From a virus (Duplodnaviria > Heunggongvirae > Uroviricota > Caudoviricetes), in IMG/VR virus record IMGVR_UViG_2606217106_000001, positions 1-5,982 of that record: a DNA stretch of 5,982 nt, one strand, 5' to 3'. Under the pieces are notes generated by a model. The model was given only the letters and a program-made list of their open reading frames with translations, was not told the DNA's origin and searched no databases. This document shows positions 1-5,982 of this stretch, in pieces. The stretch's first letter is position 1, and the number at the start of each line of letters is the position of its first letter. The position numbers and the translations under genes are program-made.

Positions 1-631
1 GAGATTGGGTTGGGAGAGTAGTCATGGTGACAGCCCCTATGTTGAATTCAATGAACTCACCACCAAGGCTTTCCACGACCATATAGGTGGTGAGACGTAC
101 AGGGGTGGAAATACCGGTCAACATAGAACCCGGCCCAACCGAAGTTGGCCCTGCACGCCCCACCATAATTTGGGCATAACGATGCTCATGACACGAAAAA
201 ACCGCATGAGCGCGGTTGTGCTCTATATTGAATTTCGGGTTTCCACGCCCGGCACCCGCTTTATAAGGTGCCTGAGCAGTGTAACGTCCCGGAATTGCAG
301 AATCAATATGCTGGTGGTCCTTCACACTCAACAAAATCACGCCTGAATTTCCACAAAGGACTAAAGCACTCATGCGGGTAGTCTTTGCGAAGATAGATAA
401 CGCGCTGTGTTTCTGGCTCCCAACGAATAACATGAACATAAAGTCCTCTTCCGTCACGAAACCAGCGGTTAAGTTCCTGCACAACTCGCCCCCCACAGTC
501 AGGTAAAGTTCTCTGTGGTTACTTACAGCCAGGTGATTTGGTAATCTGCATTCATGCCGTAACAACAGGTGTTCAGCGACGCTGACCACCAGCTGTTGCG
601 ACAAACGGTTATTTGCCGTTAAACTATTCAT
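1..631 (-). CDS. Hypothetical protein, N-terminal ~210 codons; gene continues beyond the window start. Position (after cro and the 183-aa gene) suggests a replication/early-right module, but function is unassigned
   Basis: Hand translation of the minus strand (plus-strand triplets 629-631, 626-628 ... 2-4) is stop-free to position 1. ATG at 631-629 overlaps the TGA of the upstream gene (ATGA at 628-631), with an in-frame stop just upstream at 635-637 and a GGAG about 10 nt upstream. It is missing from the ORF track because no stop lies in the window; the listed + ORF 5..346 is its same-register antisense shadow. No family recognised. Confidence 0.7.
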   Translation of the reverse strand, partial: MNSLTANNRLSQQLVVSVAEHLLLRHECRLPNHLAVSNHRELYLTVGGELCRNLTAGFVTEEDFMFMLFVGSQKHSALSIFAKTTRMSALVLCGNSGVILLSVKDHQHIDSAIPGRYTAQAPYKAGAGRGNPKFNIEHNRAHAVFSCHEHRYAQIMVGRAGPTSVGPGSMLTGISTPVRLTTYMVVESLGGEFIEFNIGAVTMTTLPTQS

Positions 632-1179
632 GCGTTAGTTTCTCCACAGACACAAAACGCCACGACGCCCGGAGCTGCACACTCGCGGGCGTCACTCTTT
701 TCTGGAGCGCAAAAGATTTTGTAGACCAGTGCTGCATGCTCCTGGAGCTTCGAAATTGACAGATACAACTCATCATTAATTGCTGTCTGCTCGTGTGGCT
801 CCACTACCCCATCTTCGATTGCCGAACGAATCTGCTTTGAGTAACTCCCGATCTGTTCGATGACTTCCAGCAGACGCTGGTTAATATCGGCGTTGTCCAC
901 ATCCTCGACGTCAGGAAGAGACACAAAGACGCCATTTGCAGACTGCGCCACAGCGTCAGCAATGAAGTGAGTTCCACCAGCACGTTGTAAAATCATTGCC
1001 CATCCCAGCGGGAAAATCTGATCGCCATCTGCACGAAGGCGGTTGAATAATGCGTTCTCTGTTACATCCAGCCACTCAGCAGCTTCAGCGTAACCCCCCG
1101 GCAACGCCGCGATAGTTTTTCTGACAGCTTTCACGTACCACTCAGGCTGTTTTTCCACTTTCCAGTGATGATTACCCAC
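628..1179 (-). CDS. 183-aa early protein in the cII position, immediately downstream of cro; possibly a CII-like/YdaT-like regulator, function not established
   Basis: GTG start at 1179-1177 preceded by AGGAGG with a 6-nt spacer (reverse complement of 1180-1195). The start overlaps the end of the cro-like gene by 8 nt and the stop overlaps the next start, so the three minus-strand genes are translationally coupled. The functional label is from position only. Confidence 0.7.
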   Translation of the reverse strand: MGNHHWKVEKQPEWYVKAVRKTIAALPGGYAEAAEWLDVTENALFNRLRADGDQIFPLGWAMILQRAGGTHFIADAVAQSANGVFVSLPDVEDVDNADINQRLLEVIEQIGSYSKQIRSAIEDGVVEPHEQTAINDELYLSISKLQEHAALVYKIFCAPEKSDARECAAPGVVAFCVCGETNA

Positions 1180-1432
1180 GGCTTACCTCCTGTTCCTGTG
1201 GTTTAAACCCATTCTGGTTTTGGCTAGATTGAAAACGTGCCGGATAAAGAATCTGCATTTCGCTGATTTCACCCTTAAAAAAATTGGCCAGACGTTCTGC
1301 AAGATCGATAGATGGAATTTGTTCCAGTCTTTCAATACGACTCAGCGTCGCTGGATTGACCTGAACGCCCGCAGCAACATGCTGCAAAGTAAATCCGTGC
1401 GCCTTACGCACATTCCGTAATGGTGATTGCAT
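1172..1432 (-). CDS. Cro-like HTH (XRE-family) transcriptional regulator, 86 aa
   Basis: ATG at 1432-1430 with GGAGG 4 nt upstream (reverse complement of 1433-1441). Protein has a classic XRE helix-turn-helix (FTLQHVAAGVQVNPATLSRIERLEQ). It is divergent from the cI-like gene across a 97-bp operator region. Confidence 0.85.
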   Translation of the reverse strand: MQSPLRNVRKAHGFTLQHVAAGVQVNPATLSRIERLEQIPSIDLAERLANFFKGEISEMQILYPARFQSSQNQNGFKPQEQEVSRG

Positions 1433-1529
1433 ATAACCTCCACATATTGCGTGATGAGCATATTATTTCACGCAAATATTTTGCGCAAGTTGATTTGCTT
1501 AACGCGCAATAAAGAAATGTAATAAACGC
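1433..1529. promoter_or_regulatory. OR-like immunity intergenic region with three dyad-symmetric operator candidates spaced 24 bp centre to centre, plus candidate divergent promoters pR (towards cro) and pRM (towards cI)
   Basis: Dyads at 1447-1461 (TTGC-N7-GCAT), 1471-1485 (CGCAA-N5-TTGCG) and 1495-1509 (TTGC-N7-GCAA). Candidate pR on the minus strand: -35 TTGCGC (reverse complement of 1483-1488), 17-nt spacer, -10 TAATAT (reverse complement of 1460-1465). Candidate pRM on the plus strand: -10 TAATAA at 1520-1525, which puts the transcript start at or near the cI ATG, and there is no SD before 1530. Confidence 0.6.
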
Positions 1530-2222
1530 ATGAACATAGGAAACCGAGTCAGACAACTTCGCCAGGCGAAGAACATGAAAATCGCCGATCTCGCTGAAGC
1601 AATAGGAGTGGATGCGGCGAATATCTCACGCCTGGAAACAGGTAAGCAGAAACAATTCACTGAACAAGCCCTGAGTAATATTGCCAGGAGCTTAGGTGTT
1701 GATATTGCTGATCTCTTTACCTCAGACGTCAAAAGTAATACTGTATGTAAAAACAGTATTAGTGAGGATGTTGCGCAGGTGAAGGATGTATTCCGTATTG
1801 AAATGCTGGATGTCAGTGCCAGTGCGGGAAATGGCCTTATCCAGGGCGGTGATGTCATTGATGTGATTCATGCCATTGAATACAGAACTGATAATGCTGT
1901 ATCGATGTTTGGCGGACGGCCAGCCAATCACATTAAAGTTATCAACGTTCGTGGGGACAGTATGTGTCCAACCATTGAGCCAGGAGATCTCATCTTCGTT
2001 GATATCAGTATCAATCAGTTTGATGGGGATGGTATATATGTATTTGGTTTTGATGATAAAATTTACGTCAAACGACTGCAAATGATACCTGATAAACTGC
2101 TGGTAATTTCTGATAATCAGATTTACCGCGAATGGGGAATTACCAGCGAAAACGAACATCGGTTTATGGTCTTTGGAAAGGTCTTAATCAGTCAGTCACA
2201 AACCCTTAAGCGACACAATTAA
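1530..2222 (+). CDS. cI-like prophage repressor, 230 aa: N-terminal XRE HTH plus C-terminal S24 (LexA-like) autopeptidase domain
   Basis: HTH at roughly residues 17-40 (KIADLAEAIGVDAANISRLETGKQ). Candidate Ala99-Gly100 cleavage site in the linker (SASAG-NG). GDSM with Ser144 and a KRL lysine (Lys181); the Ser-to-Lys spacing of 37 residues equals that of LexA. ATG at 1530 has no SD. Confidence 0.93.
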   Translation: MNIGNRVRQLRQAKNMKIADLAEAIGVDAANISRLETGKQKQFTEQALSNIARSLGVDIADLFTSDVKSNTVCKNSISEDVAQVKDVFRIEMLDVSASAGNGLIQGGDVIDVIHAIEYRTDNAVSMFGGRPANHIKVINVRGDSMCPTIEPGDLIFVDISINQFDGDGIYVFGFDDKIYVKRLQMIPDKLLVISDNQIYREWGITSENEHRFMVFGKVLISQSQTLKRHN

Positions 2223-2242
2223 CCCCTACCTCAACATCAATT

Positions 2243-2267
2243 AGCCACCAGAAGGTGGCTTTTCATT
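2243..2267 (+). terminator. Rho-independent terminator candidate downstream of the cI-like gene
   Basis: AGCCACC (2243-2249), 4-nt loop AGAA, GGTGGCT (2254-2260), followed by TTTTCATT; 21 bp after the cI stop. Confidence 0.6.
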
Positions 2268-2276
2268 ACCCACCAA

Positions 2277-2330
2277 ATTGCATATCTCGCAATAAAAACA
2301 CTTGCATAATGCGCAACTTCATTTTATCTT
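2277..2330 (+). promoter_or_regulatory. OL/pL-like region: two operator dyads matching the OR consensus, overlapping a candidate rightward promoter
   Basis: TTGC-N7-GCAA dyads at 2278-2292 and 2302-2316, centres 24 bp apart, with the shared core TTGCnTAnnnCGCAA. Candidate promoter: -35 TTGCAT at 2302-2307, 17-nt spacer, weak -10 TATCTT at 2325-2330. The promoter assignment is tentative. Confidence 0.45.
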
Positions 2331-2760
2331 TCTTTCCAGACATACAAACAAGGTACTAACAAAATTTGGTTGTAACACGGCGTATGGCACATGCGTCGTT
2401 AGCGGTCTGGTGACGTTAAAGGGGACAATCCACTCCTTGCTCGGGCAAACAAACCAGGTAGCCGGAATGTGCAAGTCAATGATGATGCTGATAAGACGCC
2501 TAACCAGCGTGGCGATTCGGTTTGACGCCTGGGAAGAGACCAGGGTGCAACGATGAGGGCATTTATGGAACCGCGACAAAGTGTGGTGCCGTAACTGGCT
2601 AAGTGCTCTCAGCGTTGTGGTGAATGCGCAGGCTGATGCGCGAAAGACATTGCAGCTATTGCGGAAAAGAGCTGTTCGGCGGGGCAATTAAACGCCCGTG
2701 AGAGTCTGAAATAACCGCAAGCCGGAGATCAGCACCGGTCACCACAACAGCCACTGCTTT

Positions 2761-2807
2761 AGCGGTACCAGTTTGTACACTTGCTTCCGGCTGGTACCGC
2801 TCTTTTT
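2761..2807 (+). terminator. Strong hairpin followed by a U-tract; candidate intrinsic terminator or attenuator upstream of the accessory operon
   Basis: Perfect 11-bp inverted repeat AGCGGTACCAG (2761-2771) and CTGGTACCGCT (2791-2801) around a 19-nt loop, then CTTTTTA at 2802-2808. The minus strand has no U-tract. Confidence 0.4.
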
Positions 2808-2896
2808 ACAAAACAGAGAAGAGCATCACCGGCCGACGGGCTCATAACCCAATCCATCCTGGCGGCTGCCACCGCAGGTGTTCTTCTCTGTTTTGT
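2808..2896. repeat. Perfect 15-bp inverted repeat enclosing 59 bp of GC-rich sequence, just upstream of the yfdP-like ribosome-binding site
   Basis: ACAAAACAGAGAAGA at 2808-2822 is the exact reverse complement of TCTTCTCTGTTTTGT at 2882-2896. The enclosed segment has further local dyads (for example CCTGGCGG...CCGCAGG). Confidence 0.6.
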
Positions 2897-2944
2897 GGAG
2901 AAACCAACCGACCTTGCAGGGTCGATATGATGAGGAGCAGCAAA

Positions 2945-3307
2945 ATGGCTAGCGAACGCAGTACTGATGTGCAGGCATTTATCGGGGAGCTGGACGGCGG
3001 CGTATTTGAAACCAAAATCGGCGCTGTTCTCAGTGAAGTCGCTTCCGGTGTGATGAATACGAAAACCAAAGGTAAGGTCTCGCTCAACCTGGAAATCGAA
3101 CCATTTGATGAGAACCGTGTGAAAATCAAACACAAACTCTCATATGTTCGCCCGACTAACCGCGGGAAAATTTCCGAAGAAGACACCACCGAAACGCCGA
3201 TGTATGTCAATCGCGGTGGTCGCCTGACTATTCTGCAGGAAGACCAGGGACAATTACTGACTCTTGCCGGTGAACCTGACGGAAAACTCCGCGCAGCAGG
3301 TCGTTAA
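2945..3307 (+). CDS. yfdP: YfdP-like prophage protein of unknown function, 120 aa from this start
   Basis: ATG at 2945 preceded by GAGGAG (2932-2937) with a 7-nt spacer. The ORF track begins at ATG 2927 (126 aa), which remains an alternative. Symbol assigned by synteny with yfdQ/yfdR and recalled length; not verified. Confidence 0.7.
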   Translation: MASERSTDVQAFIGELDGGVFETKIGAVLSEVASGVMNTKTKGKVSLNLEIEPFDENRVKIKHKLSYVRPTNRGKISEEDTTETPMYVNRGGRLTILQEDQGQLLTLAGEPDGKLRAAGR

Positions 3308-3372
3308 TATCGTTTTTAATTAACTGATTATTTATCTCATCACTGAATATCTTTATATAGTGAGGACTTATT

Positions 3373-4197
3373 ATGTCTCAGAACTTAGACGCAACCGCAA
3401 TTAATCAAATCCATGCCCTTATTTCTGCTCAGGGTGTTAATGAAATTATCAGTAAGATTGGTGCCGATGCTGTGGCATTGCCTGAGAATTTCCGCATTCA
3501 TGATCTGGAAAAATTTAATTTAAATCGCTTCCGTTTCCGTGGTGCGCTTTCCACTGCCAGCATCGATGACTTTACCCGTTATTCTAAAGATCTTGCAGAT
3601 GAAGGCACCCGCTGCTTTATCGATGCTGATAATATGCGTGCCGTCAGTGTGCTTAACCTGGGTACTATTGATGAACCAGGTCACGCAGATAACACCGCCA
3701 CACTCAAACTGAAAAAGACAGCACCGTTCTCTGCTCTGTTGTCTGTTAACGGCGAGCGTAACTCCCAGAAGTCACTGGCAGAATGGATTGAAGACTGGGC
3801 CGACTACCTTGTGGGCTTTGATGCTAATGGTGACGCTATTCAGGCAACAAAAGCGGCTGCGGCAGTCCGTAAAATCACGATTGAAGCAAACCAGACCGCT
3901 GATTTTGAAGATAATGACTTCAGCGGCAAACGCTCCCTGATGGAATCTGTCGAAGCGAAGACCAAAGACATTATGCCAGTGACATTTGAATTTAAATGCG
4001 TTCCGTTTGAAGGCCTGAAAGAACGTCCGTTTAAATTACGCCTCAGCATTATCACTGGCGATCGTCCTGTACTGGTTCTGCGCATTATTCAGCTGGAGGC
4101 GGTGCAGGAAGAAATGGCTAACGAATTTCGTGATCTGCTTGTTGAGAAATTTAAGGACAGCAAAGTAGAAACCTTTATTGGTACTTTCACCGCCTGA
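3373..4197 (+). CDS. yfdQ: YfdQ-like prophage protein (DUF2303 family as I recall it), 274 aa, function unknown
   Basis: ATG at 3373 with GTGAGGA (3360-3366) at good spacing; a long uninterrupted ORF of protein-like composition. Length and position match CPS-53 YfdQ from memory. Confidence 0.88.
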
Positions 4198-4209
4198 TTT
4201 CATTACTGC

Positions 4210-4231
4210 AAATGCCCCTGCGGGGGCATTT
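4210..4231 (+). other. GC-rich hairpin in the yfdQ-yfdR spacer; weak terminator, attenuator or RNA-stability element
   Basis: AAATGCCCC (4210-4218), loop TGCG, GGGGCATTT (4223-4231): a 9-bp stem starting 13 nt after the yfdQ stop. The 3' T-run is short and mostly inside the stem. Confidence 0.35.
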
Positions 4232-4324
4232 ATGGAAACATAATTTACTCAATAATCGCCGGATGGTGATGGCTTCCTTTTACCAGAATTCAGCGCGGTG
4301 CAGCGCATATACGTGGAGAACAAA

Positions 4325-4861
4325 ATGTCATTTATTAAAACTTTTTCCGGGAAGCATTTTTATTATGACAGGATAAATAAAGACGACATCGTGATTAACG
4401 ATATCGCGGTTTCCCTTTCAAATATCTGTCGCTTTGCAGGACATCTTTCACACTTCTACAGCGTCGCCCAACATGCGGTGCTTTGCAGCCAGCTGGTACC
4501 GCAGGAATTTGCTTTTGAAGCGTTAATGCATGATGCAACAGAAGCGTATTGCCAGGATATTCCCGCTCCACTGAAACGCCTTCTTCCTGACTATAAACGG
4601 ATGGAAGAAAAAATAGACGCCGTAATCCGTGAGAAATACGGGTTACCCCCGGTTATGAGCACGCCCGTGAAATATGCCGATCTCATCATGCTGGCAACCG
4701 AACGCCGCGATCTCGGGCTTGATGATAGCTCTTTCTGGCCTGTACTGGAAGGTATCCCGGCAACAGAGATGTTCAAAGTGATTCCACTGTCGCCAGGCCA
4801 TGCCTACGGGATGTTTATGGAACGTTTTAACGAGTTATCGGAGTTACGCAAATGCGCATGA
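4325..4861 (+). CDS. yfdR: YfdR-like HD-domain phosphohydrolase (YfbR-type 5'-deoxynucleotidase family), 178 aa
   Basis: ATG at 4325 with GGAGAA (4314-4319) upstream; the ORF-track start at 4298 is a GTG 9 codons further up with no SD. HD-domain residues are visible: H40, H43, H50 and the H69-D70 pair (FAGHLSH ... LMHDATEAY). Confidence 0.88.
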   Translation: MSFIKTFSGKHFYYDRINKDDIVINDIAVSLSNICRFAGHLSHFYSVAQHAVLCSQLVPQEFAFEALMHDATEAYCQDIPAPLKRLLPDYKRMEEKIDAVIREKYGLPPVMSTPVKYADLIMLATERRDLGLDDSSFWPVLEGIPATEMFKVIPLSPGHAYGMFMERFNELSELRKCA

Positions 4862-5202
4862 ATGTTTTCGAAATGGAAGGGTTTCTTCGCGGGAAATGTG
4901 TACCACGAGATCTGAAAGTGAATGAAACAAATGCTGAGTATCTGGTGCGTAAATTCGATGAAGTACGTGCTGAGGCTCGCAACGAGGGTATTAACTATAC
5001 CGCAAGCCGTCTTGCTGCGGCTTTCAATCACGGATTTATCAATAAGTCTTTACGTGAAGTTTTCGACGTTACACGCATGATTCTGTCAGCGAAAGAAGAG
5101 TTGGCTAATGAACCACACCCGATTGATGGCCTGTCCGGTGAATATGCGGAGAAATCCCTAGAAGAATGGGCGGAACAGATTCGCAAAGGAGGCAACCAGT
5201 GA
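4852..5202 (+). CDS. YfdS-like small prophage protein, 116 aa; C-terminus ends in the RKGGNQ junction motif
   Basis: ATG at 4852 with GGAG (4840-4843) 8 nt upstream; it overlaps the yfdR stop (4859-4861) by 10 nt. An in-frame ATG at 4858 gives an ATGA overlap instead. The stop overlaps the next gene's GTG start. Confidence 0.75.
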   Translation: MRMNVFEMEGFLRGKCVPRDLKVNETNAEYLVRKFDEVRAEARNEGINYTASRLAAAFNHGFINKSLREVFDVTRMILSAKEELANEPHPIDGLSGEYAEKSLEEWAEQIRKGGNQ

Positions 5203-5204
5203 GC
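5180..5204 (+). repeat. Copy 1 of a 25-bp perfect direct repeat spanning a gene junction (codons for RKGGNQ, SD, stop and GTG start)
   Basis: TTCGCAAAGGAGGCAACCAGTGAGC is identical at 5180-5204 and 5857-5881. About 40 bp of downstream flank is similar but not identical (roughly 70% by eye). Confidence 0.9.
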
Positions 5205-5879
5205 AAGATTGACTATCAAGAACTGCGCGAGGCGGCGGAACAGGCAACGCAAGATGAATGGGTAGCATATATTTTGCCGGGTCATAACGGCATTTATCCT
5301 GCGCGCACGTCTGAGGGTAGGCATTGCGGATACTTTATTGACTGGCCTGGCGTCTGTCAGGGGCGGGAGAGCATCAGCATCAGAACCTACGCAGTGAATT
5401 GCAATGACGCATGGCTAAACACCGAAGGTGATGACATCTCCGGCTCATACGTTAAGTACAAAGACCATCAGGAAGTGGTTGCCGCTCTTGAGGCCAAGTG
5501 CGCGGCGCTGGCTGCTGAGAATGCGGGAATAAAGTCTGCAATTCCAAAATCACGGGATATTGAGGATGACAATGACAATATGGATGACGTATCTCTCGCG
5601 GAAGACTTCGGGTTCAATCATGCAATAGAACGGATGAGGAGACAGATACCTGAAACGCCAACCACTGATGCTTTCCTGGCTGAAGTCCGGGCGCAGGGGG
5701 TGGATGCTGCTATAGAAGCTGCAAAAAATCTGGTGGCCCAAGAATATGAGTGTAAGGATTTCAAAGCGGCGCAGAGTGATTGCTGTATGTACCCTGGTTC
5801 AGACCTGGTAGGGAAGGTTGAAATGACTGAGTGGTTAGTTGACTTTGCTGCCCAGCTTCGCAAAGGAGGCAACCAGTGA
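5199..5879 (+). CDS. Acidic hypothetical protein, 226 aa, tentatively Ead/Ea22-like (typical lambdoid early-left accessory gene)
   Basis: GTG at 5199 preceded by AAGGAGG (5186-5192) with a 6-nt spacer, overlapping the upstream stop (GTGA). The ORF-track start at ATG 5166 has no SD and would overlap the upstream gene by 37 nt. N-terminus SKIDYQELREAAEQ; C-terminus LRKGGNQ. Confidence 0.75.
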   Translation: MSKIDYQELREAAEQATQDEWVAYILPGHNGIYPARTSEGRHCGYFIDWPGVCQGRESISIRTYAVNCNDAWLNTEGDDISGSYVKYKDHQEVVAALEAKCAALAAENAGIKSAIPKSRDIEDDNDNMDDVSLAEDFGFNHAIERMRRQIPETPTTDAFLAEVRAQGVDAAIEAAKNLVAQEYECKDFKAAQSDCCMYPGSDLVGKVEMTEWLVDFAAQLRKGGNQ

Positions 5880-5881
5880 GC
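5857..5881 (+). repeat. Copy 2 of the 25-bp perfect direct repeat at the next gene junction
   Basis: Identical to 5180-5204, 677 bp downstream, in the same relation to stop and start codons. Confidence 0.9.
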
Positions 5882-5982
5882 GAAATTAATTACCAGGCAC
5901 TGCGTGAGGTGGCGGAACGTGCAATTCCAGCAATGGAACGCCTGTTAATGTTGCCAGTTGATGATGATTTGTTAAGTGAACA
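5876..5982 (+). CDS. Paralogue of the preceding gene, first 35 codons only; runs off the window end
   Basis: GTG at 5876 behind the same AAGGAGG and GTGA stop-start overlap. The N-terminus VSEINYQALREVAER parallels VSKIDYQELREAAEQ of the upstream gene. Open to the window end, so not in the ORF track. Confidence 0.55.
   Translation, partial: MSEINYQALREVAERAIPAMERLLMLPVDDDLLSE

Follow-up and report, generated by a model that had tools for sequence, protein, structure and literature searches.

A conserved + strand RNA helix in the early-left leader of lambdoid prophages, a candidate RNase III processing site

The intercistronic RNase III sites of phage T7 are simple hairpins with an internal loop that recur between many genes. 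The thrS operator represents another type of leader structure, a hairpin mimicking the anticodon arm of a tRNA. For the metY-rimP-nusA-infB operon, Regnier and Grunberg-Manago are said to have described in 1989 a leader composed of a tRNAfMet2 gene, a terminator, and an RNase III hairpin. On the PL transcript of phage lambda, RNase III modulates the translation of N at the structured leader (PMC5725501), and the put RNA of phage HK022 binds the zinc-binding domain of the RNA polymerase beta' subunit (PMC9378689). The valley of RNase III that takes up double-stranded (ds) RNA spans ~22 bp (PMC6212723). Folding of the lambda PL leader in the present analysis yielded a domain of two hairpins, closed by a long CA/GU-rich stem and located shortly ahead of the Shine-Dalgarno sequence of N. 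The element presented here is a conserved RNA structure previously uncatalogued. Rfam 15 gave no match at its position, with E up to 1 for the window and up to 10 for 2500-2945, and the element was not found described in the literature on ymfH, yfdP, SfV antitermination, tRNA-like lambdoid leaders, and STnc1310. Its unusual parts are a copy of the tRNAfMet anticodon arm and a modular leader.

The window, i.e. the whole stretch of 5,982 nucleotides that was analysed (IMG/VR record IMGVR_UViG_2606217106_000001, positions 1 to 5,982), is identical to a prophage of Escherichia coli TOE17 and 99% identical to phage mEp460. The host element is a lambdoid prophage of the mEp460/SfV/ST64B/e14 type. 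The following features of the window frame the element:

minus strand: cro-like gene and ymfL
about 1495-1513: OR-type operators
1530-2222: cI-type repressor gene
2243-2260: terminator
2278-2316, + strand: operator-like sites TTGCATATCTCGCAA and TTGCATAATGCGCAA, matching the OR sites
2547-2618, + strand: leader module A, a second long stem with arms (2547-2561 and 2604-2618) resembling those of helix P1
2614-2748, + strand: leader module B, in which, from reading the sequence, GUUGUGGUGA (2614-2623) can pair with UCACCACAAC (2739-2748)
2761-2807, + strand: terminator-like hairpin T, AGCGGUACCAGUU / GGCUGGUACCGCU, then CUUUUU, abutting P1
2932-2947, + strand: Shine-Dalgarno sequence GAGGAG (2932-2937) and yfdP start codon (2945-2947; ATG at 2945 in RefSeq)

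The operator-like sites at 2278-2316 are the probable OL/PL region giving rise to the leader transcript, and ~440 nt without a convincing gene separate them from the terminator-like hairpin. Downstream, the genes follow in the order yfdP, yfdQ, and yfdR, on to xis and int. According to this layout of genes and operators, the element sits on the early-left (PL-type) transcript, at the place taken in lambda by nutL and the N leader. The position is constant among its homologues: on the PL side, past the repressor gene and ahead of whichever gene comes first in the early-left operon (yfdP, xisE in e14, or another).

The sequence-only reading of this locus had started from a perfect 15-bp inverted repeat. 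Indeed, ACAAAACAGAGAAGA (2808-2822) is the exact reverse complement of TCTTCTCTGTTTTGT (2882-2896), with 59 nt between the arms, and it is the longest among the short-range perfect inverted repeats of the window. That such a repeat is unlikely to arise by chance, as had been stated, agrees with 300 shuffles of the window, in which the longest perfect repeat reached 13 bp and 186 of which lacked any repeat of at least 10 bp. The enclosed 59 nt are GC-rich as claimed (66% G+C vs 47% for the window), and 35 nt separate the end of the repeat from the GAGGAG Shine-Dalgarno sequence, again in line with that reading. The components of the element and its immediate surroundings are:

2803-2827, + strand: 5' strand of the 25-bp helix P1ext, consisting of the U-run U2803-U2807 and ACAAAACAGAGAAGAGCAUC; from the minimum free energy (MFE) fold, RNAalifold, and compensatory changes
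2808-2822, + strand: 5' arm of the perfect repeat, part of helix P1
2829-2861, + strand: domain P2, consensus CCGGR (2829-2833) / YCCGG (2857-2861); from covariation
2838-2850, + strand: hairpin GGG-CUCAUAA-CCC; from identity to the tRNAfMet anticodon stem-loop
2862-2875, + strand: hairpin P3, GCGG-CUGCCA-CCGC
2877-2901, + strand: 3' strand of P1ext, GGUGUUCUUCUCUGUUUUGU and GGAGA
2882-2896, + strand: 3' arm of the perfect repeat, part of helix P1
2897-2904, + strand: conserved GGAGAAAC directly 3' of the helix, the GGAGA of which pairs with the upstream U-run
2909-2924, + strand: hairpin P4, CGACC-UUGCAG-GGUCG, between the element and the Shine-Dalgarno sequence

In the + strand RNA, the stem grows inward to 20 bp (2808-2827/2877-2896) via the pairs G2823.U2881 and U2826.G2878. 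It also grows outward to 25 bp, since U2803-U2807 pair with A2901-G2897 of the GGAGA motif both in the MFE fold and in RNAalifold. The energy of the 25-bp P1ext helix is ~ -34 kcal/mol. The 89-nt RNA of the repeat folds with -40.5 kcal/mol (z = -5.85), a value equalled by none of 200 shuffles. The overall fold is a P1 helix closing a three-way junction, from which P2 with the GGG-CUCAUAA-CCC hairpin and the variable hairpin P3 emanate. In P2, covariation is seen at the inner pair (G-C/A-U/G-U) and in CCAGG/CCUGG variants; the copy in the window is weakened by two uncompensated substitutions, C2833 and U2860, which cmsearch reports as two non-standard pairs. P3 differs in length, and inserts take the whole element from 104 nt up to 131 nt in other phages. 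Its loop is frequently UUGCAG.

The element is widespread. Of 5426 complete E. coli genomes, 2809 contain the 106-nt block of the element, the median copy number being one; K-12 carries a homologue in e14, located directly before xisE and annotated as the protein YmfH. The block is also present in 62 phage records, including SfII, SfIV, SfV, cdtI, Stx2 phages, ST64B, and phages of Klebsiella and Citrobacter, and homologues occur across the Enterobacterales. Phages of Salmonella and Klebsiella are alignable with the window only over 2802-2908, with diverging flanks, and the element thus represents a discrete conserved block. A pattern scan of viral contigs retrieved 65 distinct variants. Since the pattern fixed part of the core sequence, a second sample of 68 loci was collected via the YfdP protein, one genome per species, and searched with a covariance model of 24 variants.

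Selection on the helix is evident from the pattern of substitutions. The covariation test comprised 24 variants, 32 proposed pairs, and 500 shuffles. Across the 24 variants, 94.3% of the cells of these pairs are paired vs 37-51% with the partners slid; eight pairs show changes on both sides, and the observed score was reached by 0/500 shuffles. RNAalifold, applied to 15 sequences, independently recovered the same fold including the pairing of the U-run with GGAGA, with 9 compensated pairs. A U.G pair in the upper stem is conserved as well (20 U-G and 4 U-A in the 24-variant set). In 32 cross-genus representatives, with 21-29 predicted pairs in total, the + strand helix is more stable than its complement in all 32 cases, by a mean of 7.8 kcal/mol, and 134 G.U pairs occur. 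Because of this uniform strand difference and the G.U pairs, it is settled that the selected object is the + strand RNA helix, not duplex DNA. The long-range RNA stem closing a structured loop in the yfdP leader, as envisaged by the sequence-only reading, is hence borne out by compensatory substitutions across phages and genera and by a consistent + strand bias; the proposed check by structure prediction and covariation among homologues returned both the stem and co-varying arms.

The comparison across genera separates what is kept from what is exchanged. Serratia, Yersinia, Providencia, Morganella, and Xenorhabdus retain a near-perfect helix of 23-29 bp with entirely different arm sequences, e.g. 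ACACACCAGGUGACGUAC in the 5' arm of Serratia, ACAAAUAUAAGUCCACC in Morganella, and CACUCUUAUAGAUAAGGUCAC in Xenorhabdus. The same five genera keep the flanks UUUUU-ACAC...GUGU-GGAGWA and the preceding hairpin with its U-run. Their interior, in contrast, has been replaced or nearly lost, with no more than a simple hairpin left in Yersinia similis and one further case. In Escherichia, Salmonella, Klebsiella, Citrobacter, Enterobacter, Kosakonia, Mangrovibacter, and relatives, the interior is near-invariant, with the loop CUCAUAA, CUCAUUA, or CUCAUUC followed by CCCAAUCC. As the interior turns over across genera, the common denominator among the sequences compared is a 23-29 bp helix immediately 3' of a terminator-like hairpin. 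Some prophages of Kluyvera and Buttiauxella possess neither terminator nor helix and keep GGAGAAAC and P4. In other relatives, the terminator is directly followed by the Shine-Dalgarno sequence, with no helix in between. Since such relatives lack the helix altogether, it is dispensable.

The element is embedded in an untranslated leader of 500-700 nt without a consistent open reading frame (ORF). This modular non-coding leader, the terminator abutting the helix, and the copy of the tRNAfMet anticodon arm had not been part of the sequence-only reading. Hairpin T has a stem of 13 bp; the stem sequence varies among the phages, and the hairpin with U5-7 is present nearly always. In P4, the stem co-varies and the loop (U/G)UGCAG is conserved. 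Pairing within modules A and B is mutually exclusive, because B overlaps the 3' arm of A, and a conserved GCUGUGUGUAGUC motif follows the two modules. T-arm-like hairpins with UUCGAUU loops occur in the upstream leader of related phages. One contig (L098), with a tRNA-like version of module B, has a stretch of 127 nt to which the Rfam tRNA model gives 43.9 bits. These hairpins and this score make the leader look partly tRNA-derived or built to imitate tRNA. For ST64B, transcription data are available: RNA-seq detected STnc1310, an ncRNA of 74 nt whose 3' end falls exactly within the U-run of a sister terminator (hairpin and U5). This sister terminator lies upstream of the terminator of the element and is directly followed by the second long stem. 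As this sister terminator (T0) directly precedes module A, "terminator then long stem" constitutes a repeated unit. In induced ST64B lysogens, STnc1310 is found at ~2300 TPM, the stretch covering the element and yfdP at ~1100-1280 TPM, and yfdQ at ~190-220 TPM.

Three functions had been offered for the repeat by the sequence-only reading, and among these an RNase III processing site fits best. We regard the repeat as the stem of a cis-acting structured RNA in the early-left leader, the most likely role of which is processing by RNase III, a proposal that we hold at about even odds. It would operate as follows. Polymerase reading through the terminator-like hairpin (2761-2807) would transcribe the element, and the U-tract and the CA-rich 5' arm would pair with the GU-rich 3' arm and GGAGA. 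The resulting 25-bp helix would close the junction of the tRNAfMet-anticodon-like hairpin and the variable hairpin, and would be cut by host RNase III. The cut would detach the non-coding leader, with its sRNA-like and tRNA-like modules ending at terminators, from the early-left mRNA. The mRNA left would start just upstream of GGAGAAAC and P4, and this new start would determine how stable the message is and how yfdP and the genes following it are translated. The three-way junction might also be freed as a small RNA; such an excised RNA of ~60-70 nt would contain CUCAUAACCCAAUCC. Cleavage by RNase III is inferred here, as is the direction in which it would shift expression.

Several lines of evidence point to an RNase III stem. 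The length of the helix is held near or above ~22 bp, and the sequence of the helix and the interior are free to change. RNase III substrates are expected to offer a continuous helix of at least ~20-22 bp, and that of the window measures 25 bp. The element lies on the sense strand of a transcribed, untranslated leader, as seen from the context, the + strand bias, and the expression of the homologous region in ST64B. In lambda, the PL leader shows the same layout at the corresponding position, and the order of tRNA-like module, terminator, and long hairpin recalls the metY-nusA operon. The second combination of terminator and long stem in the same leader (T0 and module A of ST64B) is counted as support, too. 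Against processing by RNase III stand the dispensability of the helix, absent in some relatives, and the two uncompensated changes in P2 of the window copy. RNase III alone also leaves unexplained the strong conservation of the interior (CUCAU..CCCAA) in the Escherichia/Salmonella/Klebsiella clade as well as the conserved GGAGAAAC and P4 loop.

The selected helix would equally be expected if it were never cleaved and acted as an insulator or stability element that isolates the folding of the upstream leader from the ribosome-binding region. Such a helix would sequester the U-tract and GGAG, and block loading of Rho or scanning by RNase E. The long untranslated leader and the conserved pairing of the U-run with GGAGA are in favor of this explanation. 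A near-perfect dsRNA of 25 bp is, however, expected to be a substrate of RNase III in E. coli (PMC6212723), and insulation would not need a length of 23-29 bp in every genus. An uncleaved helix is therefore regarded as unlikely.

A second alternative considers the junction as the functional part, with the long helix merely presenting it. The 14 nt of CGGGCUCAUAACCC (2837-2850) equal the anticodon stem-loop of the E. coli initiator tRNAfMet, including the CAU loop and three consecutive G-C pairs, which are the mark of initiator tRNA. GGGCUCAUAACCC is identical to positions 29-41 of tRNAfMet; the reference sequence of the tRNA was confirmed at 100% in K-12. When covariance model R1 was run against the metY locus, the anticodon stem-loop was the sole local match. 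Read this way, the junction would mimic the anticodon arm of initiator tRNA, whether it stays within the leader or is cut out by RNase III as an RNA of 60-70 nt, and it might control translation of the first early-left gene or serve as a decoy or sensor. Candidate partners would be factors recognising this arm of tRNAfMet, such as the 30S P site or IF3, MetRS, or an anticodon nuclease of a toxin-antitoxin or defence system, e.g. VapC, which is known to cut tRNAfMet. CUCAU is invariant in ~25 species-level representatives of the Escherichia/Salmonella/Klebsiella-type clade that were found via yfdP, independently of the motif, and the three G-C pairs of the hairpin never co-vary, as expected if their identity matters. 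The T-arm-like hairpins of the upstream modules, one of which scores as tRNA, fit this picture as well. On the other hand, the motif is missing from Serratia, Yersinia, Providencia, Morganella, Xenorhabdus, and the simple-hairpin versions, and e14 has a degenerate form of it (UUAAUAA). The stem does not go on as in a tRNA below the three G-C pairs, and some species (L140, L143, L161) change the flanking pairing yet keep the sequence. ARAGORN and the Rfam tRNA model gave no tRNA match at the element, which speaks against mimicry and led to the rejection of a tRNA gene. Common descent with the metY-rimP leader was rejected, too, since the similarity is limited to 13-15 nt of the anticodon stem-loop. 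Altogether, the mimic is a doubtful candidate with a small share of our confidence. One does not expect to meet the anticodon arm of initiator tRNA, copied exactly, in the leader of an mRNA. If functional, it would represent a new form of phage tRNA mimicry; together with the T-arm-like modules, it could define a new class of tRNA-mimicking leader RNA in lambdoid phages without N.

Further interactions of the loops and single-stranded parts were considered. An anti-sRNA of the AgvB type had come to mind because of CACAAC(A) motifs; AgvB is located 3' of PR', and its Rfam family has no match here. Kissing of the CUCAU loop with a start-codon AUGAG was dismissed, as AUGAG is missing from some of the downstream genes, and an AUCCAC-GUGGAG pseudoknot finds no support in variants with GUAUGGAG or GUACGGAG. 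Loop-loop pairing between P3 and P4 via UGCA is possible in many variants, with no covariation (e.g. CAGUCA loops), and complementarity of a loop to positions 3-16 of the window was judged to be due to chance.

The map position of the element, between PL and the first gene, is that of lambda nutL and HK022 putL, and it raises the question of a put- or nut-like RNA, i.e. a nascent structure modifying polymerase, by itself or together with factors of host or phage, for read-through of downstream early-left terminators. No N-like gene is annotated in phages carrying the element (mEp460, ST64B, and the source prophage were inspected, and YfdP belongs to no Pfam family), and in one locus (L082) the element begins ~40 nt past a PL-like promoter, as putL does. 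A nut site was nevertheless rejected. The boxA sequences CGCUCUUA / GCUCUUUAACAA are not conserved, as homologues have CCGCCCUUUUU, GCCGCAUUUUUUU, or GGGCACCUUUUUU in place of the boxA-like CGCUCUUUUUACAA of the window and keep only hairpin and U-run; a GNRA-like boxB pentaloop is absent, the hairpin loops being UUGCAG or CUCAUAA. A put-like RNA was rejected as well: each phage has a single copy and the PR operon lacks one, a search of HK022 with model R1 gave no hit, and put is built of two stems that no helix closes, its binding being mediated by specific bulges (PMC9378689). Moreover, the element lies downstream, not upstream, of the adjacent terminator, its interior differs between genera, and terminator-like sites downstream in the window occur at chance level (5 vs 3.1 expected). 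An antitermination role of either kind is accordingly improbable.

A role at the DNA level, such as a palindromic protein-binding or recombination site, a miniature transposable element, or a linker at mosaic boundaries, would match the location at a module boundary, where the 2802-2908 block is kept and the flanks diverge, and deletion variants that resemble recombination between short GUGUGUA repeats. The binding or recombination site put forward by the sequence-only reading is contradicted by the asymmetry of the strands: the conserved G.U pairs turn into A.C mismatches on the other strand, and the + strand is favored in 32/32 representatives. The element is also conserved among phages with different repressors, and genomes have a median of one copy, which is invariably found in the early-left context and is not flanked by a target-site duplication. 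This leaves such a role very improbable.

The attenuator or RNA switch that had been suggested for yfdP is unlikely. A three-way junction closed by P1 in a 5' leader is a common aptamer layout, and the interior is highly conserved within one clade. The 3' arm, however, is followed by GGAGAAAC and not by a U-run, a feature of intrinsic terminators found instead at the upstream hairpin 2761-2807; the Shine-Dalgarno sequence, 35 nt away, is unpaired in the fold and does not form an expression platform. P1ext, with its 25 bp, is too stable to switch, other genera replace or lose the interior while P1 persists, and no Rfam family matches even at E = 10, so that a riboswitch or transcription attenuator has hardly any credit left. 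Equally little is left for a coding sequence (YmfH or a hypothetical protein, a leader peptide, or an N-terminal extension of YfdP), in spite of ORFs annotated across the element (ymfH in K-12, STMMW_20251 in D23580, hypothetical proteins), two open frames in most variants, and an ORF of the window that ends with an ATGA overlap at 2927-2930, because the open frame differs among variants and is lacking in 10/109, P3 insertions are not multiples of three, ORFs from a conserved SD-AUG in the terminator loop span 2 to 184 codons, substitutions are pair-compensating rather than codon-like, and no start codon precedes 2927 in the frame of yfdP.

The element is thus present in about half of the complete E. 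coli genomes, including e14 of K-12, and is often annotated as protein; gene annotations across it (YmfH, hypothetical proteins) are to be treated as spurious. It belongs to a phage family with neither N protein nor put RNA, whose early-left operon ends in xis and int. For these phages, a leader of terminator-ended, tRNA-like modules together with a 25-bp helix of the processing type offers a testable entry to early-left control.

Compared with the known systems, the element shares with thrS-type mimics a leader hairpin that copies the anticodon stem-loop of one specific tRNA. It differs in that this is the initiator tRNA, the copy is confined to one clade, and no cognate binder is known or encoded nearby. 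Like the T7 sites, hairpins of ~20 bp in early phage transcripts that define mRNA ends, the element is predicted to set an mRNA end; unlike them, it is branched and occurs once per genome. HK022 putL and putR are likewise cis-acting structured RNAs in the PL leader (putL) of a lambdoid phage without N. They consist of two stem-loops of ~70 nt with no closing helix and are present in both early operons, whereas the element is single-copy (one each in mEp460, ST64B, and the window), has a 25-bp closing helix, and is absent from HK022. The leader of the metY operon has the same succession of a tRNA(-like) module, an intrinsic terminator, and a long hairpin before the mRNA, and a tRNAfMet anticodon arm is involved in both. 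There, a real tRNA gene lies upstream of the hairpin; here, the anticodon-like hairpin is located inside the hairpin domain. Relative to the lambda PL/N leader, there is no detectable sequence homology, the polarity of the arms is reversed (the 5' arm of lambda being GU-rich), and the element is devoid of nutL and N, includes the terminator U-tract in the helix, and has a tRNAfMet-like hairpin inside. The two agree in their location on the PL transcript, 3' of promoter-proximal signals and ahead of the first early-left gene, and both form a long stem of CA- and GU-rich strands with a two-hairpin domain that ends a few tens of nt before the Shine-Dalgarno sequence.

Copies of the element, the conserved plus-strand RNA structure at 2802-2908 in the early-left (PL) leader before yfdP, vary both in extent and in single positions. 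Variants from Buttiauxella and Kluyvera (L137, L146, L147, L175, L180) lack the terminator-like hairpin that abuts the element as well as the long closing helix P1, and retain GGAGAAAC and P4, the hairpin following the element. Their junction reads ..CGUGUGUAUGGAGA..., a sequence consistent with a deletion that reaches from the GCUGUGUGUA motif before the terminator to the GUUGUGUA end of the 3' arm. The family has A/G at 2833 and G at 2860, but the window's copy carries C and U at these positions; among the 124 collected copies, this combination is common only to the window and strain TOE17. Together, the substitutions disrupt two pairs of the inner helix P2, and the single-sequence minimum free energy prediction then yields a different interior fold.

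In most lineages outside the E. coli type (e.g. L004 2466-2490 in ST64B, L005, L013, L124, L166-L171, L186, and others), the terminator hairpin has a large loop that harbors the conserved motif AGGAGG-N9-(A/G)UGUUCU. Since the ORF beginning at this motif ranges from 2 to 184 codons, what is conserved can only be the binding of ribosomes or else an RNA motif. The terminator might be under ribosome-dependent control.

Hairpins with a (U/G)UGCAG loop are recurrent: P4 is of this type (window 2909-2924), often also hairpin P3 of the element, and further ones are located just upstream of other genes:

ST64B (L131) 22453-22470, minus strand: hairpin just 5' of xis
mEp460 (L130) 37119-37134, plus strand: hairpin just 5' of gp48

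They occur at 2 per genome vs. 0.4 expected, with both counts small. These loops could form kissing contacts, conceivable because UGCA is self-complementary, or mark a protein site.

Upstream in the leader, a second long stem is present at window 2547-2561/2604-2618, the arms of which resemble those of P1 in sequence. It and a further helix, GUUGUGGUGA/UCACCACAAC (2614-2623/2739-2748), are mutually exclusive. CACAAC and GUUGUG segments alternate along the leader, and alternative pairings are therefore possible. The leaders of related phages (L013, L018, L005, L006, L124) contain two T-arm-like hairpins, CUGG-UUCGAUU-CCAG and GUCCG-UUCGAUU-CGGAC. The stretch L098 1077-1203 is tRNA-like, its anticodon region being interrupted by a 64-nt insert; it reaches 43.9 bits against the Rfam tRNA model but receives no ARAGORN call. 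In ST64B, the published ncRNA STnc1310 (L004 2153-2226) lies within the PL leader and is found at 100-500 TPM in uninduced lysogens. Its 3' end lies in the U-run of the hairpin CUGGCGG...CCGCCAG UUUUU, which directly precedes the second long stem.

Several coding annotations overlie the element, namely ymfH of K-12 e14 (L008 2321-2632), STMMW_20251 of D23580, and a 'hypothetical protein' in many E. coli genomes. As the reading frame is not conserved between homologues, the annotated genes are likely to be spurious or to extend too far.

Elsewhere in the window, two consecutive ead/Ea22-like genes share an 89-nt direct repeat (78% identity; 5159-5247 and 5836-5924) that spans their ribosome-binding sites and starts. 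Operator-like TTGC-N6-CGCAA sites border the repressor gene on either side as putative OR (1440-1515) and OL (2278-2316), and ST64B shows the same arrangement (L004 1880-1917). Rfam matches lie on the minus strand:

83-170, minus strand: C4 antisense RNA, strong (82 bits)
195-271, minus strand: isrK, strong (62 bits)
232-284, minus strand: c4-a1b1, weak

All three are contained in a 383-aa ORF (Rha-family protein in RefSeq) whose frame stays open throughout the region; the CDS may therefore be over-extended in its 5' part. Together, the matches represent an immI module of the P1/P7 type, located in the PR operon.
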